Origin: an uncultured Anaerolineales bacterium
GTDB lineage: Bacteria > Chloroflexota > Anaerolineae > UBA1429
DNA: 50,026 nucleotides
NCBI GenBank assembly: GCA_964416075.1
Contig: CAYQDH010000002.1
Span: forward strand, 1 to 50,026
Direction of reading: 5' to 3'
This document shows, in pieces, positions 1,481 through 50,026 of the stretch. A program made the translations under genes and the position numbers. Every line of letters begins with the position of its first letter. Position 1 is the first letter of the stretch. The notes below the pieces were generated by a model that had not been told where the DNA came from, ran no database searches, and saw only the letters and a program-made list of their open reading frames with translations.

Positions 1481-3607
1481 CTATTCCAGGTCGACTGCCA
1501 CCACTTCATGATCCAGGATCGTCGGCACCGTCACGGTCACATGACCCGGCTCCGCCTCGAACGGTACCACGCTGCCGGCCACGAGCAGTTGCGCCCGCGC
1601 GGCCCGCGCACCCTCAGGCAGGCGGATGCGCACCTGCTGCGTCCCCACCGGATATAGCTCGCGAAAGGGCCCCTTCATCATCATGGGATTCGTCAGGTTC
1701 ACCATGTGCACCGTGAGCGAGCTCTTTTGGCGCCACACCGTCACATCCAGCACACCCGGGCCGGTGACTGTCGCCGGGCGCTCCTCGTTCGTGGCCCAGC
1801 CCACGGCATTGCCCAGGATCCGGCCATGGTCCACGCAGAGCACCTCCCAGAAGATGCGGTCCGCATCCCATGGCAAATACACCACCCGTCCGCGGCCCAC
1901 CTCGCGCACGTAGGCCTCAGGGATGTCGGTCACCGGCTCTCGCGGGTATACCTCCTCCATCGGCAGGTCGGGATAGGAGGGAATCAGCGTCAAAGGCGCA
2001 TTGGGGAACGGTACCGTGCCCTTGACTCTGACGCGATAGGCGCCGTTGATGATGCGCTCCGTATCCTCCAGCCCTGCCAAAAGGGGATGGACCCCGTCCG
2101 TTTGCGGATCGCGTTCCACGCGCAGGTACGAGTTCTGCATGGGCCCTTCGATGCCCCCTTCGTACCGCACGCCATACAGGTCGCACAGGCCGAAATCGGG
2201 CCGGCGCACGCCCCACTCGTCATAGAGCGAGGTCTCGAAGGTGGCCACGAGGCTGCCGCCTCGCGCGACATAATCGCGCAGTTGCTCGCATTGGGCACCC
2301 GAGAGCGCCGCGATGTTGGGCAGGACCAGCGCCTTGTATCGATCGAGGTGTTCGGCGTCCAGCAGCCCATCATGTACCATCTCAAAGGGGATCCGCGCCT
2401 CCACCAGCGCCTGGTAATAGCCCAGGGTATGATCCTCGACCTTGGCCTGCGCCGACTCACCCCCATAATAGGTTGCCGTCTGCTGCGAATAGAGCATCGC
2501 CACGCGTGCGAGCGATTCCTCATTGCGCAGGTAGGGCTCTACCGCATGGTGCCAGCCATAAATATCCTCCACTACGCCGAGCCAGCGCCGGTCGTAGAGC
2601 ATGCCGCCGAACTTGGTGAACCACGGGCGCAGCCCGTTGGCGATTCCGTCGGCTACCCAGATGCGAATCTCGGCCGGGCTCTGCACCGAGTCCTTCCAGC
2701 GGTAATGCTCCTCTACTCCGACGCTAAAGATGCCCCCCGCTGGCTTGTTTCCGAGCGTCGCACGGTACTCTTTCGCGTTCTTGCCATTGGCCCAGGGGAC
2801 CATCAGCCCGCGGCGTGCCTGGCGGTCGGCAAAGAGGATGTCGGACAGTTCACCGATGGTCTTCATATCCAGCGAGCTTAGCGCGCCGCCGCCTGTATTG
2901 GGGATATAGCGCGCAGCGGGGTTGATCGCACGGATCTCCCTGTCCCACAGCTGCCAGAGCTCGAATAGACGCTCTTGGTGCCAGCGTAAGTAGGCGCGAT
3001 AGGCCGAGCCCTGCGGATCCCGCGTCCGGGGCAGGTCCATGCCGTAGGCCTCGCGGAAATTGCGCTGGCAGTGCTCGCAATAGCACATGCCGGAACCCGC
3101 CCAGCGATTGCTAAAGATCCCCTCCACTTGGTAGAGGCGCATGATCTCGCGATGGACCTCGGTCATGAACTCGAAATTGTACGGCCCCAGGGCGCAGGTC
3201 ACCCACAGCTCTGGCTGTGCCCAGTGGCGCCGCGGTTTCCCATCAGCGTCGACAGCGACCCAATCGGGATGGGCCTCGTACGCATCCTGATGCATGGCGT
3301 GCGGGTCGGTGCGAGCGATGACCACCATATCCATCTGCTTGCACCCCGCGACCAACTCGCCAAAGGGATCGGACTCGCCCATCCACTGGCTGCGGTAGTG
3401 CAGTGGAATCTGCGTCGGGTAGTAGCAGATGCACCCCCCCGCGCTCAGGCAGGCTGCGTCGGCATGCACTCGCTGAAAATAGTCCAGCCAAAAGGCAGGA
3501 TCGTACTGCGCGGGATCGTTCTCCACCAGCGTGAGCTGCGCCCAGCGCATGGGCCGGTCGAACCAACCGCCTTGCTCTTGCGATACCATACCCTTAGCCT
3601 CTGCCAT
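1481..3607 (-). CDS. Putative glycoside hydrolase (GHL6/GH42-like catalytic region plus beta-galactosidase-trimerisation-like C-terminal half)
   Basis: The track gives a 716-aa ORF (1481..3631). The likely start is ATG 3607, with GGAGG about 8 nt upstream. The TIM-barrel-like N-terminal pattern (RWAQLTLVENDP, IARTDPH, WVTCALGPYNFEFM, CYCEHCQ) recalls GHL6/GH42-type proteins. The family assignment is from memory only. Confidence 0.6.
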   Translation of the reverse strand: MAEAKGMVSQEQGGWFDRPMRWAQLTLVENDPAQYDPAFWLDYFQRVHADAACLSAGGCICYYPTQIPLHYRSQWMGESDPFGELVAGCKQMDMVVIARTDPHAMHQDAYEAHPDWVAVDADGKPRRHWAQPELWVTCALGPYNFEFMTEVHREIMRLYQVEGIFSNRWAGSGMCYCEHCQRNFREAYGMDLPRTRDPQGSAYRAYLRWHQERLFELWQLWDREIRAINPAARYIPNTGGGALSSLDMKTIGELSDILFADRQARRGLMVPWANGKNAKEYRATLGNKPAGGIFSVGVEEHYRWKDSVQSPAEIRIWVADGIANGLRPWFTKFGGMLYDRRWLGVVEDIYGWHHAVEPYLRNEESLARVAMLYSQQTATYYGGESAQAKVEDHTLGYYQALVEARIPFEMVHDGLLDAEHLDRYKALVLPNIAALSGAQCEQLRDYVARGGSLVATFETSLYDEWGVRRPDFGLCDLYGVRYEGGIEGPMQNSYLRVERDPQTDGVHPLLAGLEDTERIINGAYRVRVKGTVPFPNAPLTLIPSYPDLPMEEVYPREPVTDIPEAYVREVGRGRVVYLPWDADRIFWEVLCVDHGRILGNAVGWATNEERPATVTGPGVLDVTVWRQKSSLTVHMVNLTNPMMMKGPFRELYPVGTQQVRIRLPEGARAARAQLLVAGSVVPFEAEPGHVTVTVPTILDHEVVAVDLE

Positions 3608-8592: not shown

Positions 8593-8803
8593 CTACCCGA
8601 ACGTCGCCTGGCCGATCATCGCGACGTCTGCCGCGGCGACGAGCCCGCACGCGAGGCACCATAGGCCCAGCGTTAGGCCGCGCCCTGCAATATTAAGCAG
8701 CTCCGGCGCGCGGTGCCCTCTACCCGTCCAATCTCAGACAGGCCCTAGTGTAGATCGAGTCACTCCCGACGTCAATGCCTTTGCAAGGCCAGCTATTTTC
8801 CGT

Positions 8804-8832
8804 TTGACAAACGCCTCTGCTCGTGCTAAGTT
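8804..8832 (+). promoter_or_regulatory. Sigma70-like promoter upstream of the AOR leader
   Basis: TTGACA (8804-8809), a 17-nt spacer, then TAAGTT (8827-8832). Confidence 0.4.
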
Positions 8833-8949
8833 GGCCACGTATACTCTGGACAGGCCTAGCCTCAAGGAGGACGTCCCGGCAACCACACCGCTCAAGCCAC
8901 GCTAAGGCCTTTGGGTGCGCGCCTGCCCTCGCACCCCATAAAATAGGTC

Positions 8950-9036
8950 AAACCTCCGACTCATCACGCTCCCTCGAGGACGAATGAGCGTTAGGTGCGG
9001 GGAGCAATCCCCACGCCCGCCGTTAGCAAAGGAGGT
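8950..9036 (+). promoter_or_regulatory. Candidate Moco/Tuco (molybdenum/tungsten cofactor) riboswitch aptamer
   Basis: 5' CCUCCGA (8953-8959) pairs with 3' AAAGGAGG (9028-9035) as P1. An internal helix is CUCAU (8960-8964) with AUGAG (8984-8988). A hairpin is GGUGCGGGG (8994-9002) with CCCCACGCC (9009-9017). CCUCCGA...AAAGGAG matches my recollection of the Moco-motif consensus. It lies directly upstream of a W/Mo-pterin enzyme gene. Confidence 0.5.
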
Positions 9037-9082
9037 GGCCTCGTTGTGCCGATTCTGGCGCACGAAGGTCACCTCCTTTTTT
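9029..9082 (+). terminator. Intrinsic terminator / expression platform of the AOR leader
   Basis: AAGGAGGUGGCC (9029-9040) pairs with GGUCACCUCCUU (9067-9078) and runs into a U6 tract (9077-9082), whose first two U form the base of the stem, then AUUU. The 5' arm reuses the GGAGG that closes the putative aptamer P1. Confidence 0.6.
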
Positions 9083-9118
9083 ATTTCGGAAATCGGTAGT
9101 CTGTACAGAGGAGGAAAC

Positions 9119-10972
9119 ATGCAAGGCTATACTGGGAAAATGTTGGTCGTCGATCTGGGGCTGAGAACATTCGAGTCGCGGGCCATCCCAGAAGCATGGC
9201 TCAAGGATTTCCTGGGTGGTGAGGGAGTGGCGATGCGCCTCTTCTACGAACTGGTGCACCCCGACGCCGATCCCTTGGACGCCGTTCAGCCGATGATCTT
9301 TGCTACCGGGCCGCTCACGGGGACGGCAGCGCCATGCAGCGGGCGCTGCTGCGTCGTCTTTTACTCCCCCGCGACCGGCACACTCGGCGCGGCCAATGCT
9401 GGTGGGCACTTTGCCCCAGCGCTCAAGAGGGCAGGTTGGGACCTCTTGGTCCTACTCGGCCAAGCCGATAAGCCCGTCTACCTGTATGTTAACGATGATA
9501 AGGTAGAGTTCCGTGACGCAGCGCGGCTGTGGGGCCAGGGGGTGGCCGAAGCCGAAGATGCCATCGTGGCGGAGCTGGACGTAAAGGGGCTGCAGGTGGC
9601 TTCTATCGGCCCGGCCGGTGAAAAGGGCGTCAAGTTCGCCTCCATCATGACCGACAAACACCGTGCCTTTGGACGCGGTGGACCCGGCGCAGCGATGGGC
9701 AGCAAGCTGCTGAAGGCGGTCGCTGTCAAGGGCACGTTGCCCCTGCCGACTGCGGATCCTAAGGCGCTCCGTGAAGCGGCGACCCATGCCCGTGAAGAGC
9801 TCTTTGCCGAGGCCTTTGTCCGCGATGAGTTGCACCCCTTTGGCACCCCTTCCTTCTACGATTCTATCAACACCCTCGGTATCCTGCCTACCAAGAATTG
9901 GCAAAGGACCGAGTTCCCCCAATCGGTCGGTAAGTTGACCTACCACGACTACCACGAGACGCTACAGGTCAAGCCCTATGCCTGCTTTGGCTGCCCTATC
10001 GCCTGCGGGCGGTCCACCACCATTATCGAGGGCAAGTATGCGGGAATGCATGGGGGTGGGCCGGAGTATGAGACCTTGGCCGCTTTTGGCAGCAAGTGCC
10101 TGGTCACCGACATCAACGCTATAGCTGCTGCCAACCACACGGCAAACAACCTGGGGCTGGACGTAATCTCTTCGGGACAGGTGATTGCCACTGCTATGGA
10201 GTGGTACGAACAGGGGATCTTGACCAAGGACCTCACCGGCGGCCTGGAGCTCACTTGGGGCAACGGAGACGCCGTGGTCGAAGCCGTCAAGCTGATCGGC
10301 AAGCGCGAAGGAGTCGGCGATCTACTGGCGCTGGGCGTCAAGAGGGCCGCGGAGAAACTGGGGCCCGCTGCCGGCTATGCGGCCATGCATGTCAAAGGGC
10401 TGGAAATGGCGGCCGATGGGGTGCGGGCCAGTAAGGGCGAAGCCGTCGTGCACGCCACTTCGGCCCGCGGCGCCGACCACTTGCGGCCCTACGCCTCCAC
10501 CATCGATGCCTTTGGCTATCGTGAACCCCAATTGGGCATCGTCCAAGACGTCGACTACCTGGAGGATGGCCACAAGTCGTGGGTCAAGCCGCTCCAGGAA
10601 CTGAGCATGGCTACCAACATGTTGGGCGTGTGCCTCTTTGCCTCGATCACCCTGGCCATCAAGCCCGCCACCTGGGCCCGGTTGGCCTCGGCGGCCGTCG
10701 GCTATCCCATCTCCCAGGGCGATCTGCTCCTCGCCGCCGAGCGGGTGATCAATCTGGAGCGCATGGTCAACGCGCGCCTTGGATTTGATCGCAAGGATGA
10801 CACCTTGCCCCGGCGCTTCCTGGAGGAACGGGCTCCCGACGGGCGCGGCGAGGGCGAGGTCGTCGACCTGGCAGTAGCACTGGATAGCTACTATGAGTCC
10901 ATGGGTTGGGACCCAAAGACTGGACTCCCCACACGTGAGAAGTTGGCCAGCCTGGGCCTGGATTGGCTCTAG
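9119..10972 (+). CDS. aor: Aldehyde:ferredoxin oxidoreductase family (tungsto-/molybdopterin enzyme)
   Basis: MQGYTGKMLVVDLGLRTFESRAIP...FLGGEGVAMRL is a typical AOR N-terminal domain. It has a 4Fe-4S motif ACFGCPIACGR and long AOR domains 2/3. ATG 9119 is preceded by GAGGAGG. The track ORF starts at 8984, inside the leader. Confidence 0.9.
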   Translation: MQGYTGKMLVVDLGLRTFESRAIPEAWLKDFLGGEGVAMRLFYELVHPDADPLDAVQPMIFATGPLTGTAAPCSGRCCVVFYSPATGTLGAANAGGHFAPALKRAGWDLLVLLGQADKPVYLYVNDDKVEFRDAARLWGQGVAEAEDAIVAELDVKGLQVASIGPAGEKGVKFASIMTDKHRAFGRGGPGAAMGSKLLKAVAVKGTLPLPTADPKALREAATHAREELFAEAFVRDELHPFGTPSFYDSINTLGILPTKNWQRTEFPQSVGKLTYHDYHETLQVKPYACFGCPIACGRSTTIIEGKYAGMHGGGPEYETLAAFGSKCLVTDINAIAAANHTANNLGLDVISSGQVIATAMEWYEQGILTKDLTGGLELTWGNGDAVVEAVKLIGKREGVGDLLALGVKRAAEKLGPAAGYAAMHVKGLEMAADGVRASKGEAVVHATSARGADHLRPYASTIDAFGYREPQLGIVQDVDYLEDGHKSWVKPLQELSMATNMLGVCLFASITLAIKPATWARLASAAVGYPISQGDLLLAAERVINLERMVNARLGFDRKDDTLPRRFLEERAPDGRGEGEVVDLAVALDSYYESMGWDPKTGLPTREKLASLGLDWL

Positions 10973-42754: not shown

Positions 42755-43306
42755 TCATCGTTTCTCGGCGAGGTAGGCAAAGAAGCCTGCCCGCCTCAAA
42801 GCTTGCAGCGTCAGCGCCCCCAGCACCCCGCCGAGAGCGCCGAAAACGATGTACCCGATCAACGCTTTGAGCAGCCCCAGCGCCACAAACCCCACCGGCG
42901 CGCCCGTGATGCTCGCCATACCCCATTTGACCAAGAACTTGGCCATGTGGCCCAAGGTCGCCGCCAGCCCCGCCACGACCAGGCTCTCCGGACGACCCAG
43001 CAGCCATAGGGCCAGGTCAGTGCCCACGCCTACCGCTGTATAGGACAGCAGTGTGTTTAGCGCGCCGAAATCGCCCAATCCCATAAAGGCCGCCATGATG
43101 CCGGAGCTTAGGCCCACCAGGCTGGCCGCGCCGCGCTTGGGGACGATCCCCGCGCCCACGATGATGATCGCCATCCAAAAGATGCCGGAATGACCCGACA
43201 GCTGCAGCGGCAGCCGCAACGTGATCTTGGCTACCACGACCAGCGCGGCGAACAGCGCTAGCAAGACAAGCTCAAAGGTGGAGAAATATCGCTCCTTCAT
43301 GGCCAT
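42755..43306 (-). CDS. ECF-transporter substrate-specific (S) component-like membrane protein
   Basis: About 183 aa from MAMKERYFSTFELVLLALFAALVV, with 5-6 TM segments. It is last in the gene string with EcfT and the fused EcfA. The start shares one nt with the upstream stop. Confidence 0.6.
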   Translation of the reverse strand: MAMKERYFSTFELVLLALFAALVVVAKITLRLPLQLSGHSGIFWMAIIIVGAGIVPKRGAASLVGLSSGIMAAFMGLGDFGALNTLLSYTAVGVGTDLALWLLGRPESLVVAGLAATLGHMAKFLVKWGMASITGAPVGFVALGLLKALIGYIVFGALGGVLGALTLQALRRAGFFAYLAEKR

Positions 43307-43809
43307 CACTCCGATTCTGGTGGGGTGTTGATTTCGATAGCATCCACGTCCTGCACCCACTCGTCGCGGATGTCCAACTGGGGCAAGAGCGAGACCAGCT
43401 TGAGCGTGCCGCGCCCCGATAGATCGAACAACACCATGTTCGCAGGGTCATCGACCTCGGCCCAGGTCAGGTCCGCAATCTTGCTGCTGCTGCCGCTGGA
43501 TACATGCACCCGCGTCGTGGGCCCGAGGGCATTGCGCTCGATGTGCCGCAAGATCACATCTCGCAGCATCCAGCCCTGCTGCGTCTTGCCCTCCTCCGCG
43601 TCCACAAACTGGGCTTCTTCCAGGTTGGCTAGATCGTCGGGCGTAAAGCCCCCTACGAGGCGACCATCCATGCGGATAGGGATGCTCCCCGGCGCCAGCT
43701 CCGGCTCCGGGCCGAGCCGCGAACGCTGCCAGGCATCTACGCCGAGGACCAGGGCCACCAGCGCCACGAGGATGCCTAGCCCGATGAGAATCCGTGTTCC
43801 TTGTGTCAT
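43306..43809 (-). CDS. Membrane-anchored extracytoplasmic protein, unknown function
   Basis: N-terminal anchor ILIGLGILVALVALVLGV, then a soluble domain of about 130 aa. It lies between the EcfT and S-component genes. Confidence 0.5.
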   Translation of the reverse strand: MTQGTRILIGLGILVALVALVLGVDAWQRSRLGPEPELAPGSIPIRMDGRLVGGFTPDDLANLEEAQFVDAEEGKTQQGWMLRDVILRHIERNALGPTTRVHVSSGSSSKIADLTWAEVDDPANMVLFDLSGRGTLKLVSLLPQLDIRDEWVQDVDAIEINTPPESE

Positions 43810-43830: not shown

Positions 43831-44517
43831 TTAGCGCCAGATTAACAGCGCCACCATAGAGGCCGCCGATCCGGCCAGCAGCCAGCTGTCGAACGATGTC
43901 CAGATGAGGCGGCGGTAGGGCCGCCGATGCGGCGAGTCAAAGCCTCGGGTATAGGCGGCCTCCGTCAAGGCCCAGGCGCGCTTGGTCGTAAGGGTGATAG
44001 CGGGCACTGCCAGGGCCACCATATCGCGCAAGCGGCCCCCCAGGTTCCGCCAGCCAGAGGATGGCGCCCAGGCCCCGCGCGCCTGCTGCGCTTCCAGGAT
44101 GGCGCGCCACTCCTCGCCTAATAACCCGAGGCTCTGAAAGGCTAAACCCAAGCTAAAGGCGTAGCGGTACGGAAGACGCATCCATTCCAGCGCCAGGCGT
44201 AACTCGCCCGGCGTGGTGCTGGCGAAGAACAGGGAGAACGCCCCGGCCAGCAGCACCAGCCGCAGGGTGATCACGATGGCCAGATCCAGGCTGACCACCA
44301 CCCAATCCACCACAAAAAGGACCAGCAAGATCCACTTGAGCCTCCAGGCCTGTCGTGCCGCTTCCGGCAACAGCCGTGCCCAGAGCAACAAGCCGATATA
44401 TAGTGCCATGAAGACAGCCAGTCGCTCTAGCGGTAGCATCACCGCCAGGGATGCACATAGGCTCAGCGCCAACTTGGTGCGCGGGTCGGCGCGGCGCAGA
44501 GGCGAGTCCTCCACCAT
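43831..44517 (-). CDS. ecfT: ECF transporter transmembrane (T) component (EcfT/CbiQ family)
   Basis: From MVEDSPLRRADPRTKLALSL, with the conserved ARG motif (EAQQARGAW). The track ORF (to 44901) runs through an intrinsic terminator and so is over-extended. GAGGG lies 8 nt before ATG 44517. Confidence 0.75.
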   Translation of the reverse strand: MVEDSPLRRADPRTKLALSLCASLAVMLPLERLAVFMALYIGLLLWARLLPEAARQAWRLKWILLVLFVVDWVVVSLDLAIVITLRLVLLAGAFSLFFASTTPGELRLALEWMRLPYRYAFSLGLAFQSLGLLGEEWRAILEAQQARGAWAPSSGWRNLGGRLRDMVALAVPAITLTTKRAWALTEAAYTRGFDSPHRRPYRRLIWTSFDSWLLAGSAASMVALLIWR

Positions 44518-44748
44518 CGCCAGCCCTCGCACGCCCAGGCCAGTTCGTCTTCGCTGGGGCTTCGCACTCACCGACTTGCCTCGTTTCAGGATTGTGATCT
44601 GCTCCTTGCCCAGCGAAAACACCGACCGAGCGCGTCGCTTCGGCCGCTCGCTATGCATGGCTTGGCACAAAGGCGCTACGACAGGGTCAGCGCTGGCCTC
44701 TCCGCAATAGCGTGAGGGCAACGATGGCCACTGGCCGAGTACTGAAGC

Positions 44749-44788
44749 AAAAAAACGGCGTTTCCCCATCCATACGCGGGGAAACGCC
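44749..44788 (-). terminator. Strong intrinsic terminator inside the Mop-EcfT spacer
   Basis: Minus-strand RNA reads GGCGUUUCCCC, loop GCGUAUGGAU, GGGGAAACGCC, G, UUUUUUU: an 11-bp perfect stem and U7. Confidence 0.8.
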
Positions 44789-44975
44789 GACTGATTCGCC
44801 GCCGTTACCGTTCTCCTTTCCAAGGATGGGGGGCGTGACTGTTTCCGGCCACACCTTCTTGACGGTCCACAAGACCGCCAGCGATCACAGGCCCTAGCCA
44901 TCGCTGGACATCGTCACACCAACGAGCGCGTTAGGCTATGTGATTCGGAGAACAAGATATCCTGTTGTGAACGAA
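44789..44975 (-). promoter_or_regulatory. Riboswitch-like leader (multi-helix element plus antiterminator) upstream of ecfT
   Basis: On the minus strand GGUGUGAC (44920-44913) pairs with GUCACGCC (44839-44832). That helix encloses the CCAGCGAU/AUCGCUGG hairpin (44907-44900 with 44885-44878) and GACGAUGUCC/GGACCGUC. CCCCAUCC (44831-44824) is complementary to GGAUGGGG (44771-44764) in the terminator. I recognise no known riboswitch class. Confidence 0.45.
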
Positions 44976-44979
44976 AGCC

Positions 44980-45007
44980 ATTATAGTTTGATCGCGCACA
45001 AACGCAA
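44980..45007 (-). promoter_or_regulatory. Possible internal promoter for the ecfT leader
   Basis: On the minus strand, TTGCGT (45007-45002), a 16-nt spacer, then TATAAT (44985-44980). It is followed by the imperfect palindrome AACAGGATATCTTGTT (44966-44951). Confidence 0.35.
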
Positions 45008-45039: not shown

Positions 45040-45249
45040 CTAATCGACAGCAACCATGACACTGGACGCCTTGATCACGGCATAAGCTTCCTTGCCCACC
45101 TTCAGCCCGAGGCTCTCGGCGGATGTCTTGGTGATGATAGACACCACCTCGAGGCCCCCTGGTAGCTCAATAACCACCTCAGAATTCACCGCGCCGGGGG
45201 TTATCTTCTTCACCACACCCTTTAAAACGTTGCGAGCGCTGAGTCTCAT
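45040..45249 (-). CDS. mop: Molbindin (Mop/TOBE-domain molybdate/tungstate-binding protein)
   Basis: 69 aa: MRLSARNVLKGVVKKITPGAVNSEVVIELPGGLEVVSIITKTSAESLGLKVGKEAYAVIKASSVMVAVD, a textbook Mop/TOBE pattern. RBS GGGAGG. Confidence 0.85.
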   Translation of the reverse strand: MRLSARNVLKGVVKKITPGAVNSEVVIELPGGLEVVSIITKTSAESLGLKVGKEAYAVIKASSVMVAVD

Positions 45250-45310: not shown

Positions 45311-45339
45311 ATTATACTACTATTACGATCAAATTTCAA
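45311..45339 (-). promoter_or_regulatory. Near-consensus sigma70 promoter of mop
   Basis: On the minus strand, TTGAAA (45339-45334), a 17-nt spacer, then TATAAT (45316-45311), in an AT-rich island. Confidence 0.6.
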
Positions 45340-45375: not shown

Positions 45376-46833
45376 TCATAACGCCGGACTATCAGCCGCA
45401 GGTGCCGCCGGCCGACTGCCTTCGCGCAGCCACGGTGGCACCAGCAGCCCGGCCTCGCACCAGGCCGCCGCGTGGCCCAATACCTCCGCCACAGGCCCAT
45501 CATCCAACACTCGTCCATCGCCGAGCAGGATCAAGCGATCCACGTACCTGGCCACCCAATCCAGATCGTGTGTGGCGGCGACGACGACATAGCCCGCCTG
45601 CGCCAGGGCGCGCGCTGCGCCACCCACGATGGCGCGGTGGCCGTCATCCTGTCCTAGCGTCGGCTCGTCGAGCAGCAGGCCGTGCCTGGGCTGGCGCATG
45701 AGCAGGATGGCCAGGGCCAGTCGCTTCTTTTCTCCCTCGCTCAGCAGTAGCGGCGGCGTTTGCTCGTATGGGGCCAGGCCCAGCGCCTGCAATGCCCAGT
45801 CATACATGGCATCGTCGGGGTGCGCCAGCCGGTAGCGCATCTCCATCTCCACAGTCGGGTTGAAAAGCTGCCAATCGGGGTTCTGGAACATCAGCCCCAG
45901 GTCGGGTCGCGTCCCATCCGCCGCCGCGATCTGCCCCGTATAGGGGTGCAGCCCCGCACAAGCCCGCAGCAGCGTCGTCTTCCCTACGCCATTGCGCCCC
46001 ACCAGTGCCACTACCTCGCCGCCCGGTAGCTGCAGATCGAGGCCCTCGAAGAGCCTGCGCTCGCCATGCCCCAGTTCCAGCCCCCTAATGGCTATCTCCA
46101 CCTGCCGTTGGTAGAGAGGAGGAAGGACTTGAGCCTGCTCCGTGCCTGCCTCGAGCGACGGGTTTTCGGCCCGGTGGCCGCCGGCCATGGCATAGCGGTG
46201 GATGGCCCCACCGTGAAAGTATGCGTCGCGGTGCTCGCAGACAACCACCGTGCCGCCCTGTGCTCTCAAGTCGGCCAGGTCGGCGACGAGCTGGGTTGCG
46301 GCGGCGGTATCCAGCATGGAGAGTGGCTCGTCCAGGACCAGGGCGCCGGTCTGCCGGGCCAGGGTAGCGGCCAGCATCAGCCGCTGCTGTTCCCCACCGC
46401 TGAGGGTCTGGGGGGAACGCTCGCCCAAGCCTGTCAGCCCAAAGCGCTGCAGACTGGATGTGATCCTTGATTCGATCTCTTTCGCGGGCAGCCCGAGGTT
46501 CTCCAGGCCGAAGGCGACTTCTTCCTCCACGGTGGATGCGACGGACTGCACAGCGGGATTCTGGAACATCAGCCCCACCCGCTCGGCGATCTGCCACATC
46601 TCGGCCTGGTCGGTGCGCAGGTCGCCGACCCACACCTGGCCGCGCATCTCTCCTCGGTAGAGGTGGGGAATGAGGCCCGCCAGGCAGCGTGCCAGAGTGC
46701 TCTTGCCGCACCCCGAAGGCCCGGTAATGACCCATGTCTCGCCGGGAGCAGCCAATAGGTCGATATCCTGCAGGCCCAGGCCATGCTGTGGATAGCGGTA
46801 GCTCAGGCCCTCGGCGCGCAGTGAAATAGACAT
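45376..46833 (-). CDS. ecfA: Fused double ABC ATPase of an ECF-type transporter (EcfA-EcfA')
   Basis: Two ABC cassettes. Walker A motifs are GPSGCGKS and GRNGVGKT, Q-loops are MFQNP twice, and signatures are LSGGEQQR and LSEGEKKR. The start MSISLRAEGL is at 46833. Confidence 0.85.
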   Translation of the reverse strand: MSISLRAEGLSYRYPQHGLGLQDIDLLAAPGETWVITGPSGCGKSTLARCLAGLIPHLYRGEMRGQVWVGDLRTDQAEMWQIAERVGLMFQNPAVQSVASTVEEEVAFGLENLGLPAKEIESRITSSLQRFGLTGLGERSPQTLSGGEQQRLMLAATLARQTGALVLDEPLSMLDTAAATQLVADLADLRAQGGTVVVCEHRDAYFHGGAIHRYAMAGGHRAENPSLEAGTEQAQVLPPLYQRQVEIAIRGLELGHGERRLFEGLDLQLPGGEVVALVGRNGVGKTTLLRACAGLHPYTGQIAAADGTRPDLGLMFQNPDWQLFNPTVEMEMRYRLAHPDDAMYDWALQALGLAPYEQTPPLLLSEGEKKRLALAILLMRQPRHGLLLDEPTLGQDDGHRAIVGGAARALAQAGYVVVAATHDLDWVARYVDRLILLGDGRVLDDGPVAEVLGHAAAWCEAGLLVPPWLREGSRPAAPAADSPAL

Positions 46834-46840
46834 AGCCGCG

Positions 46841-47527
46841 TCAATCCAGCTTGAGCGGCACCCAATTGGGATCACCGCGCTCCACGTACAGCACGGGACG
46901 TCCATCGCGCAGGGCGGGGCGCAGTTTCCCGCCCGTGTCGATCAGCCCTTCCACGATGGGGTCCCCTGCCATATTCAGCACCGCCACGATTCCCGACGCC
47001 AATATTGCCTCGACGGACTGGATGCCCGCGAGTTCGCGGATCGTGCCTACCAAAATGAAACGCCCGTCTTGGCCTGATGCGCCCAGTCCCACGGCCGATA
47101 GGGCGCCGATCACGCCATCCTCCGTGCCTCCCAGGCCGCGCAGAAACAGGCCATACGCTGCGGCCAGCTGTCGCGCCTCACCCTGGCCCACCAACTCGGT
47201 CTGTGCGCGGTGCCCAAAGCGAGTGATGGCCGCTGGAACCTGGCGCGCGATGCATACGCCGGGATCGCTGCCCTCGGGACTTTCATTCTTCACATAATCT
47301 GAGACGAAATCTCCTAACTCGTTCAGGTCGGCCTCGCTCTGCAAGTGAATGCAGGCCGAGCTGTTGCGCTTCGTCATCGGCACGCGGGGATCGACGAGAA
47401 GCTGGTGGCGCGAGATGCCGAACAGGTCGCCGAATCGCCCCAGGTGATCGACCATCTGCCGCGCCAGCTTGCCCGTGCCGCGCTCCCAGTCAACGATATC
47501 CGTATCATCCAACCCGATGTAGATCAT
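46841..47527 (-). CDS. Stand-alone protein resembling the TiaS N-terminal kinase (TCKD/DUF1743-like) domain
   Basis: MIYIGLDDTDIVDWERGTGKLA..., VDPRVPMTKRNSSACIHL, SDPGVCIA and GVIGALSAVGLG parallel my recollection of archaeal TiaS blocks (VGIDDTDS..., NPTIPYKTRGNGA, NPG, GLIGALAAVG). The CDS itself is solid but the family call is tentative. Confidence 0.5.
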   Translation of the reverse strand: MIYIGLDDTDIVDWERGTGKLARQMVDHLGRFGDLFGISRHQLLVDPRVPMTKRNSSACIHLQSEADLNELGDFVSDYVKNESPEGSDPGVCIARQVPAAITRFGHRAQTELVGQGEARQLAAAYGLFLRGLGGTEDGVIGALSAVGLGASGQDGRFILVGTIRELAGIQSVEAILASGIVAVLNMAGDPIVEGLIDTGGKLRPALRDGRPVLYVERGDPNWVPLKLD

Positions 47528-47612: not shown

Positions 47613-48971
47613 CTAGACCTTGGCGTGTAGCGCCTGTGACTCGCGCAAACGTTCGATCGCTTGTCCCAGCTCATCATCGGACACGGGGCAACCACGCAGC
47701 CACAGGATATCGACTCCGGGCGCCATACCCAATTGCGGAGCGCGCTCCAACACAGCATGGGCATAGGACGCGCTGCAGTCCCCTAGGATGAGCTCCTGGT
47801 GCCAGGCATTGCGCTCCACGTCAGCCCCCACGAACACCTGATCTCCCGCCGCGCTCACCCGCAGATAAGAGATATCGGCCGGATCGTGCCCGGCCAGCGC
47901 CTGGCGGCCCAGCTCCAGGCAGCGCTGACAGACAGCCCCCGACCCTTGGAGCGCCTCGATGATCGCGGGCACAGGGGCCGGGCAGCCGGCGATCATCGTG
48001 CCCAGGTGGCTGCAATCCTTGGCGCAGTCGCCGATGGCGATGACCGTGCCCTCGACCTGGGGCGCGTCCCCCTCGGAACCGACGATGATATGGAGCGGCT
48101 TGAGCAGCTTCTGGCGCGCAAAACGGTGCAGGGCCGTGTTGGCAAACGCCCTGCACCCGCTGCAGGCGTTGCGGTCGTGAACCTGCAGGCCAGGCAAGGC
48201 CTGTTGCAGCTCTTCGGCAGCCCCGATAAAGCGCCGCTTGGCACAGTCCGCGACCGTCTCGCCCACCACCTCGATGCGCTGCGGGTCGCCGATCCCCAGG
48301 CCCTCCTCGATGGCCCATTGCAGGTTGCGGGTGCGCCAGGTCATCATCATCAGCTCTCTCGCCACCACATCCACCGCCACGGGATCATCCCCGGCCAACA
48401 TCACCTGGGCGTGCACCGGATGCTGAAAGCCAACGCCCCCGGCGATCCCTTCGGCCCCCACCAGGCCGTCGACGATGATCAGGTCGGGGCTGCGCACGCG
48501 GTTCAGGTCCACCAGGAACTCTTCCAGCAGGTATTGGCTGTGCACCTCGGAGCGTTTCCATTGCGGTGTGCAGCCAAAGCTGTTCTTCAGTGTCACGGTA
48601 TGGTCGGCGTGGGGGCCGGCATCCAGGTTGTAGAGCTCGACCCCGCTCCGAGCCGCCATCTCCCGCCACCCTCCAGTAGGAAAGCCGCTATCTATGGCGA
48701 GGCCGAACCCCGGCGTTCCTTCGGCGACGATGATCCGCGCCGGAGAGCAGCGGCGCACTTGCTCGATCAGCGCTTCTACCAGCTCGACATGCGTCGTGCC
48801 CCCGGAACTGGCAGGACCGCTGCTGACGATATTCGGCTTGATGAGCACCGTTTGCCCGGGCCGTACGTAACGCTCGATTCCTCCCAGTTCGGCCAAGCAC
48901 TTGTCCAATACTTGCGCAGCCTGGCCGAGCTCGATCCACTTGTGCAACGCAACACTTGTGGTTTCCTTCAT
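47613..48971 (-). CDS. DUF362 domain protein with Cys-rich C-terminal extension
   Basis: From MKETTSVALHKW. VRPGQTVLIKPNIV and TLKNSFGC are typical of DUF362. C-terminal cysteines are CSGCRAF, GDCAKDC, AGCP and CQRC. GACGAGG lies upstream of ATG 48971. Confidence 0.7.
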   Translation of the reverse strand: MKETTSVALHKWIELGQAAQVLDKCLAELGGIERYVRPGQTVLIKPNIVSSGPASSGGTTHVELVEALIEQVRRCSPARIIVAEGTPGFGLAIDSGFPTGGWREMAARSGVELYNLDAGPHADHTVTLKNSFGCTPQWKRSEVHSQYLLEEFLVDLNRVRSPDLIIVDGLVGAEGIAGGVGFQHPVHAQVMLAGDDPVAVDVVARELMMMTWRTRNLQWAIEEGLGIGDPQRIEVVGETVADCAKRRFIGAAEELQQALPGLQVHDRNACSGCRAFANTALHRFARQKLLKPLHIIVGSEGDAPQVEGTVIAIGDCAKDCSHLGTMIAGCPAPVPAIIEALQGSGAVCQRCLELGRQALAGHDPADISYLRVSAAGDQVFVGADVERNAWHQELILGDCSASYAHAVLERAPQLGMAPGVDILWLRGCPVSDDELGQAIERLRESQALHAKV

Positions 48972-49025
48972 AATGACCTCGTCAATTTGTCTTTTCCTCT
49001 TGATCGGCGGTGCCATGCGTCGACC

Positions 49026-50026
49026 CTATCCCAACCGTCCGATGCGCGCCAGCCCGTCGGCCACATCACCCATCCCCAGCGCCTCCAGGCTCGCGCGGGT
49101 CGGGTACCCGTTGCTGGGACTCCAGCCGCGCATCTCGTAATAGCGGTCCAGCATCGGACTAAAGCGCTCCAGGTCGAGCACCACGCCATCGCTAAGGGCG
49201 GGTTCGGTCATCGTCTGGGCCGCGGACCAATCCACGGTGCGGTTGCGGTCGTGGTTGCGCACATCGACAGCCCGTAGTTGGTTAAAGATGCGCGAGCCTG
49301 CCTCCGTGAGCGTGGCTAAATCGGTCTCCTGGCCCGTGCAGGCCGAATAGAGCTTGGCCATCATCTCCGTATCCGCCGCGCGATCCTCGCTCTCCATGCT
49401 AAAGATGCGTGGCTGTTCATAGTCGCACAGCGTCAGCGATTCTAATAGCATCCCCCAGTTGTGATGCAGGATGGCCGGGATCACCTTCGTATCCGGCTTG
49501 TCGTATGTGTACGCGGGGTTATACACATCCGGCTCCCCATACACTCGCTCGCAGATGGCCCGCGCCTGTTCGGCGGTCACCGGCCCGCGGTTCGGACCGT
49601 GCTCTGGCAGGTAACTGAGCAGATGGGTCGTATAGGCGTGGGTTGAATCGCTGGCCGGATCGCGCGTATCCACGCAGAACTGCAGCACGGGCACCAGCCA
49701 AAAAGGAAAGTAGGGCCGTCCGCCCGTGCCCCAGTGGGCATTCCAATGGTTTGTCTGCCCAAAGCGCCGGGGGTAGATCCGGTCGAGGAGTGGCGCTCCC
49801 GCACCGCCAAAGAGGCGCTCCGCGGCATAGCAAGCGCCATCGGCCAGCGCGTCGCCCAACTCCCCCTCTCTCAGCGCTATCGTGCGCACCATGTTGATCG
49901 TGAACTCCGGCGACTGTCGCGGCACATCCTCCAGATAGTGGATCTCCTTATCCGGCACGGGGATGGGGATGCCGTCGATCGTATCGATCAGGCCATGTTG
50001 CTTGCACATCATCAGCCAGGGGATGA
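49026..50026 (-). CDS. Second aldehyde:ferredoxin oxidoreductase family gene (C-terminal two thirds; N-terminus beyond window)
   Basis: The frame is open to the window end (…IPWLMMCKQHGL…). The AOR domain 2/3 pattern runs to ...YYEMRGWSPSNGYPTRASLEALG, mirroring the end of the first AOR (YYESMGWDPKTGLPTREKLASLG). Confidence 0.85.
   Translation of the reverse strand, partial: IPWLMMCKQHGLIDTIDGIPIPVPDKEIHYLEDVPRQSPEFTINMVRTIALREGELGDALADGACYAAERLFGGAGAPLLDRIYPRRFGQTNHWNAHWGTGGRPYFPFWLVPVLQFCVDTRDPASDSTHAYTTHLLSYLPEHGPNRGPVTAEQARAICERVYGEPDVYNPAYTYDKPDTKVIPAILHHNWGMLLESLTLCDYEQPRIFSMESEDRAADTEMMAKLYSACTGQETDLATLTEAGSRIFNQLRAVDVRNHDRNRTVDWSAAQTMTEPALSDGVVLDLERFSPMLDRYYEMRGWSPSNGYPTRASLEALGMGDVADGLARIGRLG

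Follow-up and report, generated by a model that had tools for sequence, protein, structure and literature searches.

A Moco RNA motif leader with a predicted terminator platform ahead of ECF-type transporter genes in an Anaerolineales bacterium

The window, that is the whole stretch of 50,026 nucleotides analysed here, is positions 1 to 50,026 of contig CAYQDH010000002.1 (assembly GCA_964416075.1) from an uncultured Anaerolineales bacterium. On its minus strand, between a mop gene and the gene for the T component of an energy-coupling factor (ECF) transporter (ecfT), lies an RNA leader that is very probably a P3-containing member of the Moco RNA motif (Rfam family RF01055) with a transcription-termination expression platform. 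Family membership, architecture, covariation, alternative-fold energetics and gene context were computed, and from them we infer the ligand (molybdenum cofactor, Moco, rather than tungsten cofactor, Tuco, from the presence of P3), termination in vivo and the transporter substrate. While the RNA belongs to a known class, the novelty may lie in the genes that it gates.

In the whole window, cmscan against Rfam 15 gave a sole match above the gathering score. This match is RF01055 at 44962-44797 (minus strand), with a score of 50.2 bits (gathering score 36), an E-value of 3.9e-9 and coverage of model positions 1-135 of 135. Our own covariance model (CM; R1), built from six compact aptamer copies among related loci, scores the window aptamer at 43.5 bits. 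A homologous leader on a Joint Genome Institute (JGI) contig (L081; related loci are cited by such numbers), where the S component is 89% identical to that of the window, also matches RF01055 above gathering over the full model (56.6 bits), and window 45007-44751 aligns to L081 2968-3222 with 88% identity. The genomic surroundings of the window aptamer are of the molybdenum/tungsten (Mo/W) type: mop lies upstream, genes for aldehyde:ferredoxin oxidoreductases (AOR) occur in the window, and orthologous leaders precede tupA or tupBCA. The Moco RNA motif reportedly goes back to Weinberg in 2007. The RF01055 family is described as a molybdenum/tungsten-cofactor riboswitch by Regulski et al. 2008 (PMC2408646), who report terminator-type platforms and Moco repression within it.

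The original prediction had called the leader an unclassified riboswitch-like attenuator, perhaps of a new class, with no recognizable Moco features. The Rfam search on which it had staked this classification returned the RF01055 match given above. The Moco consensus had escaped notice since the aptamer is disguised by 29 nt inserted in P2 and by a longer P3 loop; a CCCCCC core also masks the match. The leader is made up of the following parts.

44980 to 45007, minus strand: promoter-like element, -35 TTGCGT at 45007-45002, 16-nt spacer, -10 TATAAT at 44985-44980 (read from the sequence; conserved in L081)
44797 to 44962, minus strand: very probable full-length, P3-containing Moco/Tuco riboswitch aptamer (cmscan RF01055, own CM, constrained fold)
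44808 to 44955, minus strand: P1, UCUCC at 44951-44947 with GGAGA at 44816-44812, extendable to 9 bp as 44955-44947 with 44816-44808 (Rfam alignment, constrained fold, covariation in relatives)
44884 to 44944, minus strand: P2, AUCACA at 44944-44939 with UGUGAU at 44889-44884, with a CCUAA/UAGGG tetraloop-receptor bulge and the 29-nt tip insert (Rfam alignment, minimum free energy [MFE] fold)
44899 to 44927, minus strand: P2-tip hairpin insert, 29 nt, lineage-specific (Rfam alignment; common only to the window and L081)
44860 to 44880, minus strand: P3 hairpin of 9 bp, UGGCGGUCU at 44880-44872 with GGACCGUCA at 44868-44860 (MFE, Rfam P3 columns)
44832 to 44855, minus strand: P4, GGUGUGGC at 44855-44848 with GUCACGCC at 44839-44832, GAAA tetraloop at 44845-44842 (Rfam alignment, MFE, covariation in relatives)
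44812 to 44833, minus strand: conserved core, CCCCCC (consensus CCUCCC), AUCC, then UUGGAAAGGAGA, which contains P5 and the P1 3' strand (Rfam alignment, core-motif search)
44764 to 44831, minus strand: antiterminator, CCCCAUCC at 44831-44824 with GGAUGGGG at 44771-44764, 8 Watson-Crick pairs (truncated-transcript MFE; both strands unchanged in L081)
44749 to 44789, minus strand: intrinsic terminator, 13-bp stem-loop at 44789-44756 and U7 at 44755-44749 (terminator scan, full-length MFE)

Folding calculations agree with this architecture. The 231-nt leader has an MFE of -97.7 kcal/mol (z = -3.83), and none of 200 dinucleotide shuffles folds as well. The unconstrained MFE structure already holds P2, the insert hairpin, P3, P4 and the terminator. 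Forcing the Moco architecture (P1, P2 and P4) in ViennaRNA gives -97.3 kcal/mol, a cost of only 0.4, and all of P1-P5 are reproduced across the MFE and constrained folds of the window leader. As hallmarks of the family, P4 is capped by a GNRA (GAAA) tetraloop and the bulge of P2 holds a receptor for it (PMC2408646). The 5' half of the receptor, CCUAA, is present in the window; its 3' half is UAGGG, one base off the canonical UAUGG that is found in L081. The core elements CUCCGA and UUGGAAAGGAG are exact and CCUCCC is replaced by CCCCCC, a U-to-C change that is coupled with G-to-A at the base of P4, where G-U becomes A-C. This core variant recurs in L066, L081 and L088.

All strings quoted in the original prediction are present on the minus strand, including TTGCGT-16-TATAAT, CCCCAUCC, GGAUGGGG and the U7 run. 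So are the strands of its proposed nested helices: GGUGUGAC (44920-44913) and GUCACGCC (44839-44832) for the outer helix, GACGAUGUCC (44915-44906) and GGACCGUC (44868-44861) for the inner one, and CCAGCGAU (44907-44900) and AUCGCUGG (44885-44878) for an 8-bp hairpin. These helices cannot coexist as drawn, since their strands share bases 44915-44913 and 44907-44906. With the outer helix forced, which is not wholly Watson-Crick (seven such pairs and one G-U), the fold lies 7.5 kcal/mol above the MFE, and with the 8-bp hairpin added it lies 9.8 above (ViennaRNA). In both the MFE and the conserved fold the partner of GUCACGCC is not GGUGUGAC but the nearby P4 5' strand, GGUGUGGC, and the outer 5' strand falls inside the lineage-specific insert, which is absent from 14 related aptamers of genome loci. 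The nested-helix model was therefore rejected as the functional fold. A new class of RNA built from GGUGUGAC/GUCACGCC, GACGAUGUCC/GGACCGUC and CCAGCGAU/AUCGCUGG and sensing the substrate of the transporter is hardly credible against the full-length RF01055 matches of the window and L081, even though its outer helix is still pairable in L081 via A-U to G-C and the complementarity between insert and P4 3' strand is somewhat above chance (623 of 20,000 insert shuffles reach such a pairing run, p ~0.03).

This complementarity can also be read within the Moco architecture. The insert's GGUGUGAC is nearly a copy of the P4 5' strand and can thus pair with the P4 3' strand. The insert may have been left behind by a duplication, or it may represent a competing fold. 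It might even be a functional extra switch, in which GGUGUGAC competes for the P4 3' strand and a misfolded 'anti-P4' state tunes ligand sensitivity. The 8-bp match, with the shuffle p given above, and its preservation in L081 by a two-sided A-U to G-C change favour such a switch, which we nevertheless consider improbable: it is seen in two sequences only, 88% identical to each other, its alternative fold is the costly one just described, the insert folds a stable hairpin of its own in the window MFE with pairs that are still pairable in L081, and P2 tips of variable length are common among related aptamers and in the family. The P4 mimicry of the insert is thus a weak lead.

The expression platform of the Moco aptamer lies at its 3' side. 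CCCCAUCC consists of the conserved CC(U/C)CCC core and the 5' half of P5, just upstream of UUGGAAAGGAGA and outside P4. It was claimed to share two C residues with GUCACGCC, the basis on which the two folds were thought to exclude each other; the two strands are in fact adjacent, without overlap. It is the location of CCCCAUCC in the core and P5, beside the P1 3' strand, that makes aptamer and antiterminator mutually exclusive. In a transcript ending at 44764 or 44760 the antiterminator fold is the MFE, with -86.5 versus -84.9 kcal/mol for the closed aptamer. In the full-length transcript the terminator is favoured, with -97.7 versus -90.0 kcal/mol for the antiterminator. The terminator predicted earlier is real and ends in U7, while its stem was scored by the terminator scan at 13 rather than 11 bp. 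Together, fold energetics and terminator scan support the earlier view of a riboswitch leader with terminator/antiterminator OFF logic, and the design fits a kinetically controlled transcriptional OFF switch. The genes downstream also agree with what had been stated, a T component, an anchored protein (here X167) and an S component of a putative ECF importer.

In the proposed mechanism, transcription would start at the TATAAT site just past mop, or reach the leader by read-through from the mop promoter, and the nascent RNA would fold P2 (with its lineage-specific hairpin insert), P3 and P4. When the cofactor is scarce, the core strand CCCCAUCC would capture GGAUGGGG, which is the 3' arm of the terminator, and polymerase would read into ecfT, X167 and the S gene. 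Bound cofactor would lock the core, P5 and P1; GGAUGGGG would then be freed, the 13-bp/U7 terminator would form and transcription would stop at about 44749. As a net effect, the finished cofactor would feedback-repress the membrane half of an ECF-type importer in the Mo/W acquisition gene set of Anaerolineae-type Chloroflexota.

The source of the transcript may be twofold. TTGCGT-16-TATAAT was not listed by the consensus promoter scan, because its -35 matches the consensus at only three of six positions, while its -10 is perfect. The scan lists a stronger promoter-like site upstream of mop and found no terminator between mop and the aptamer. The leader is thus reachable both from its own promoter and via read-through from mop. 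L081 keeps the -10 and the spacing (TTGCAT-16-TATAAT), and a terminator-like hairpin lies there between mop and the TATAAT element, which favours an independent transcription start in that locus.

Related loci were collected by a protein search with the S component, which gave 80 loci, one per species, almost all of them metagenome-assembled genomes (MAGs) of Anaerolineae/Chloroflexota. Moco aptamers were found at 12 of the 80 by Rfam scans, a core-motif regular expression and the own CM. The first 11 loci had no Rfam Moco match, and the idea that the association of aptamer and ECF cluster is unique to the window was dropped once these wider methods had been applied. The aptamer stands directly upstream of the cluster, or of a small lipoprotein gene heading it, in L029, L033, L047, L072, L057, L040, L041 and L054. 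A terminator-like hairpin with a U-run is visible just past the aptamer in L029, L033, L047 and L072; none was identified past the aptamer in L040, L041 and L054. In L057 the aptamer overlaps the start of the gene for a TiaS-like protein. L013, the closest genome, has its aptamer at the same ATPase/ecfT junction as the window, before an inserted tupB-tupC-tupA cassette.

Covariation was counted on a CM-guided alignment of 16 aptamers with a model of P1, P2, P4 and P5 (without P3), as MAFFT had misaligned P2 and P3 in a set of 15. Standard pairs fill 87.3% of the paired cells, versus 30-50% when the 3' partners are slid by 1-3 columns, and 22 of 32 pairs have changed on both sides, versus a shuffle mean of 12.6; none of 500 shuffles reached the observed values. 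Note that the alignment was fitted to the model structure, so that the counts lean towards that structure.

The pairwise comparison with L081 covers P3 and the terminator as well. P3 shows one compensatory change (C-G to U-A), and two further pairs have a change on one strand without loss of pairing (G-U to G-C and U-G to C-G). In P4 two pairs switch between G-C and G-U, and in the terminator two C-G pairs become U-G, all still paired. Over aptamer and terminator, eight changed pairs stay paired and two are broken, both in the non-canonical receptor bulge. Further copies of the leader were sought by a metagenome scan for CCCCCCATCCTTGGAAAGGAG, which found only an unrelated locus, L088; the antiterminator and the P4 mimicry of the insert hence rest on two sequences. 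L088, an unrelated metagenomic contig, has two Moco aptamers of its own, at 1355-1476 and 3126-3252 (both minus strand). In one of them, which lies upstream of a gene for a secreted protein and has a terminator of its own, the core is the CCCCCCAUCC variant, and the CCCCCC form therefore extends beyond the lineage of the window.

Some observations weigh against the assignment to a functional, Moco-type switch. The RF01055 score of the window is the lowest of the set (50 bits versus 55-76 in relatives), which is due to the 29-nt P2 insert, a P3 loop longer by 8 nt, CCCCCC in place of CCUCCC in the core and UAGGG in place of UAUGG in the receptor. Both antiterminator strands are identical in the window and L081, the only two copies of the leader, so that covariation lends this helix no support. 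The -35 box is weak, TTGCGT matching TTGACA at 3/6, and 90 to 230 nt separate the terminator from the start of ecfT. Finally, the context has a tungsten flavour (two AOR genes; sister genomes with tupBCA or tupA at this junction), which sits oddly with a P3-containing aptamer.

The last point raises the question of the ligand. P3-containing RNAs are associated exclusively with molybdopterin (MPT)/Moco genes and P3-less ones with Tuco genes (PMC2408646), from which we infer that P3 dictates Moco over Tuco specificity. By this rule the window leader, whose 9-bp P3 is maintained in L081, is of the Moco type. A switch of the same family and mechanism that responds to the tungsten cofactor (Tuco/Wco), or accepts both cofactors, is possible, though on balance unlikely. 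Such a ligand would suit the two genes of the tungstoenzyme-type AOR family (9119-10972 and 49026-50012), the homologous leader of L081 that precedes a gene for a TupA-like binding protein, and L013 and L084-87, where a P3-less aptamer followed by tupBCA occupies the same junction. Moreover, in different species the same ECF cluster is preceded by P3-containing aptamers (the window, L081, L040, L041 and L054) and by P3-less ones (L013, L029, L033, L047, L057 and L072). On the other side stand the presence of P3, kept by compensatory change, and its exclusive tie to MPT/Moco genes in the text cited. The TupA-like proteins also fall below the NCBIfam TupA equivalog cutoff (215.8 versus 400), so that the match does not fix their metal preference. 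The occurrence of both aptamer types on one cluster provides natural cases on which the proposed rule of Moco/Tuco selectivity can be tested.

The genes around the Moco-type leader are arranged as follows.

46841 to 47527, minus strand: TiaS-like protein, 228 aa, outside riboswitch control (weak family matches)
about 46830 to 45376, minus strand: fused double ECF ATPase, outside riboswitch control (ECF_ATPase models)
45311 to 45339, minus strand: stronger promoter-like site upstream of mop, TTGAAA-17-TATAAT (promoter scan, 11/12 matches)
45040 to 45249, minus strand: mop (TOBE/molbindin, 69 aa), immediately upstream of the riboswitch (Pfam TOBE, E 7.7e-19; NCBIfam Mop, 81.5 bits versus a cutoff of 55)
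44518 to 44748, minus strand: spacer from the terminator to ecfT, with homology to the region where tupA meets ecfT in relatives (75% identity to L082)
43831 to 44517, minus strand: ecfT (ECF T component), starting at ATG 44517 or an upstream ATG at 44658 (Pfam CbiQ, E 6.4e-17; conserved in 80+ loci)
43306 to 43809, minus strand: X167, predicted membrane-anchored protein with a predicted SUOX/PruR pterin-binding fold (AlphaFold2 model, Foldseek)
42755 to 43300, minus strand: ECF S component, YkoE-like (PF09819; Pfam 23.2 bits, just under the gathering cutoff of 25.2)

The order TiaS-like/ATPase/EcfT/X167/S is kept in nearly all 80 loci, and only 40-100 nt lie between the ATPase gene and ecfT in almost all relatives. 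In the window the riboswitch divides the cluster: the upstream half (45376 to 47527, minus strand) lies before it, and only the membrane half (T, X167 and S) would be gated. Around the window's lineage the ATPase/ecfT junction has been occupied in several ways, listed here in the order of transcription.

L013 and L084-87: P3-less aptamer, tupBCA, ecfT
L081: mop, P3-containing aptamer, tupA-like, ecfT
L082: tupA C-terminus, spacer, ecfT
Window: mop, P3-containing aptamer, spacer, ecfT

Window 44744-44518 is 75% identical to L082 144-480, which follows the tupA C-terminus. In the simplest reading of these sequences, a tupA gene between terminator and ecfT was lost in the lineage of the window. 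This might mean that the riboswitch is a decaying relic that once controlled the deleted tupA/tupBCA cassette and now regulates nothing useful, which would suit the lack of tup genes, the homologous spacer and the lowest Rfam score of the set. We find this very improbable, however. The leader has kept every position that is invariant in the family, along with P1-P5, both antiterminator strands and a strong terminator. In the ancestral arrangements, too, the aptamer precedes ecfT, X167 and S, which have hence always been in the regulated unit, and several relatives have it directly at the head of the ECF operon. The reading frame of EcfT may begin within the spacer, with the ATG at 44658-44656, so that part of the spacer would encode an N-terminal extension; an in-frame indel and conservation at the amino-acid level point to this. 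A start at ATG 44517, with a GAGGG Shine-Dalgarno, is also possible.

Two more genes lie upstream of the cluster at 47613-50012 (minus strand), one for a 467-aa DUF362 protein and the second AOR-family gene, of which the end of the window leaves only the C-terminal part. In the 80 relatives the surroundings of the cluster contain no counterpart of either gene.

The ECF parts of the cluster differ in how readily they are recognized. The T component matches PF02361 (E 6.4e-17) and the fused double ATPase matches ECF_ATPase models, while the S component is below the gathering cutoff; its homologues have precomputed PF09819 matches and names such as 'ECF transporter S component', and a PDB sequence search with it gave no meaningful match. 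The TiaS-like protein is weakly similar to the kinase (TCKD) domain of TiaS, a tRNA-modifying enzyme, and to 'methanogenesis marker 11'. Among those of the 80 loci with enough upstream sequence on the contig, most have its gene in the conserved first position of the cluster. By definition an ECF transporter has a T component (CbiQ/EcfT), ABC ATPases and a small integral-membrane S component and needs no binding protein; TupA-like binding proteins often adjoin the present cluster.

X167 has no Pfam or NCBIfam match. It has 1,341 unnamed homologues, and both it and the S component have more than 1,300 each in public data. Its AlphaFold2 model, made with 36 homologues (predicted local distance difference test, pLDDT, 87.7; predicted template modelling score, pTM, 0.76), consists of an N-terminal transmembrane helix and a beta-rich domain. 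The best PDB matches in Foldseek are PruR structures: 7KOM (E 2.5e-5, template modelling score, TM, 0.65, probability 1.00), 7KP2 and 7RKB, the last with neopterin. Moco domains of sulfite oxidase and YedY also match.

Relatives have a second domain of this kind, of about 115 aa, which in some cases forms the C-terminal part of a TupA-like fusion protein and in others is a lipoprotein on its own, encoded right after the aptamer. This domain passes Pfam PF00174 (molybdopterin-binding, SUOX-fold; 30-31 bits versus 24), and its profile weakly matches SorA and PruR in PDB (E 0.01-0.03). Copies lie at L013 3146-4513, L081 from 3284 and L082 3-146, and downstream of the aptamers in L020, L040, L041, L047 and L054; there is no copy in the window. 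Alignment of X167 to the profile of the PF00174-like lipoprotein with hhalign is non-significant (E 0.17), the likeness being seen only via the predicted structure.

Genes neighbouring the cluster were counted within 6 kb of it in the 80 genomes.

PF00174-like domain: 45/80
TupA-like protein: 28/80
TupB-like protein: 20/80
Amino-acid (AA)-kinase protein: 20/80
Moco aptamer: 12/80
moaA: 11/80
mop: 2/80
At least one of these Mo/W-type features: 60/80

With such neighbours in 60 of the 80 genomes, the cluster belongs to the Mo/W acquisition and cofactor gene set. There is, in our estimate, an even chance that ecfT, X167 and S, with the fused ATPase and the TiaS-like protein, form an undescribed ECF-type importer dedicated to Mo/W nutrition. 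A quite unlikely extension of this is that the substrate is a pterin cofactor or precursor (salvage of Moco, Tuco or molybdopterin) and not an oxyanion. The two pterin-binding-fold proteins and the analogy to other riboswitch-controlled ECF vitamin importers favour a cofactor, and moaA beside S and the TupA-like proteins nearby favour an oxyanion. We know of no bacterial Moco importer. In the literature retrieved, which consisted of general reviews and unrelated papers, no paper was found that ties an ECF transporter to Moco, molybdate, tungstate or the Moco riboswitch, an absence that is no proof of novelty.

The amino-acid-kinase-family protein (PF00696) can be seen in L003 at 351-1175, directly behind a P3-less Moco aptamer and a terminator, and recurs at 19 other loci. 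Molybdenum-storage proteins share the amino-acid-kinase fold.

Compared with the Moco RNA motif as known, the window leader is alike in P1-P5, in the P4 GAAA tetraloop with a CCUAA-type receptor bulge in P2, in the CUCCGA and CC(U/C)CCC...UUGGAAAGGAG core, in having P3 as in the Moco-type subgroup, in its intrinsic-terminator OFF platform and in its Mo/W gene surroundings. It differs in the P2-tip hairpin insert, the longer P3 loop and the CCCCCC core with G-to-A at the P4 base. It also differs in its place, as it stands not at the head of a gene cluster but within one, where it separates the A component of a transporter from the T component. The regulated genes are of the ECF type, none of which were found in the accessible text of PMC2408646 or in other retrieved literature, and the host phylum Chloroflexota is not named in that text ('Chloroflex' has no match).

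Other importers under Moco riboswitches are the modABC/tupABC oxyanion ABC importers. There too the finished cofactor controls Mo/W acquisition, and the aptamers of L013 and L084-87, at the same junction, precede tupBCA. In the window, by contrast, no tup or mod permease follows the aptamer and the transporter is of the ECF type.

ECF importers of vitamins are controlled by riboswitches in several cases, such as TPP (thiamine pyrophosphate) with ykoEDC/thiT, FMN (flavin mononucleotide) with ribU, THF (tetrahydrofolate) with folT and preQ1 with queT. A survey of ECF regulons treats such riboswitch-controlled importers (PMC3766115). The window resembles them in that a cofactor riboswitch would repress an ECF importer, with a YkoE-like S component, a YkoD-like fused ATPase and a CbiQ-type T component, while it differs in the Moco-motif sensor, in the extra conserved TiaS-like cytoplasmic protein and PruR-fold X167, and in its tupA/tupB/moaA-type surroundings. 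X167 is alike to the periplasmic pterin-binding PruR proteins (7KOM, 7KP2, 7RKB) and the SUOX-fold Moco domain in its predicted fold, as is the lipoprotein domain of relatives that passes PF00174; it differs from PruR in its low identity (13-15%), its predicted N-terminal transmembrane anchor and its location inside an ECF operon.

A known cofactor riboswitch thus points to a widespread and uncharacterised cluster, in which genes for a putative ECF transporter stand together with those for two proteins of pterin-binding fold and for a TiaS-like enzyme. If the cluster is indeed an ECF route for tungstate, molybdate or the cofactor, the substrates of ECF transporters would gain a new class, and there would be a handle on Mo/W acquisition in Anaerolineae-type Chloroflexota.

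Another Moco-like aptamer, more divergent, is found in the window at 8942-9050 (plus strand), upstream of the gene at 9119-10972 (plus strand), which encodes a full-length aldehyde:ferredoxin oxidoreductase (AFOR_N and AFOR_C). It is detected only by our own family-specific CM (42.2 bits, E ~1e-9); Rfam at E<=1 gave nothing for it over 8700-9300. It lacks P3 and the receptor and has a GCAA tetraloop, features that according to Regulski et al. 2008 (PMC2408646) go together in a few Moco RNAs. The whole element (8942-9085, plus strand) ends in a long hairpin at 9028-9079 followed by U6. The 5' arm of this hairpin contains the P1 3' strand, GGAGG, which implies an ON-switch geometry. Its terminator fold has -79.8 kcal/mol, versus -70.2 with P1 forced.

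A riboswitch of another family occurs near one of the related clusters. It is a NiCo (nickel/cobalt) riboswitch of a Spirochaetes MAG (L028, 9690-9771, plus strand), located some 3 kb downstream of the ECF cluster there, and is probably unrelated.

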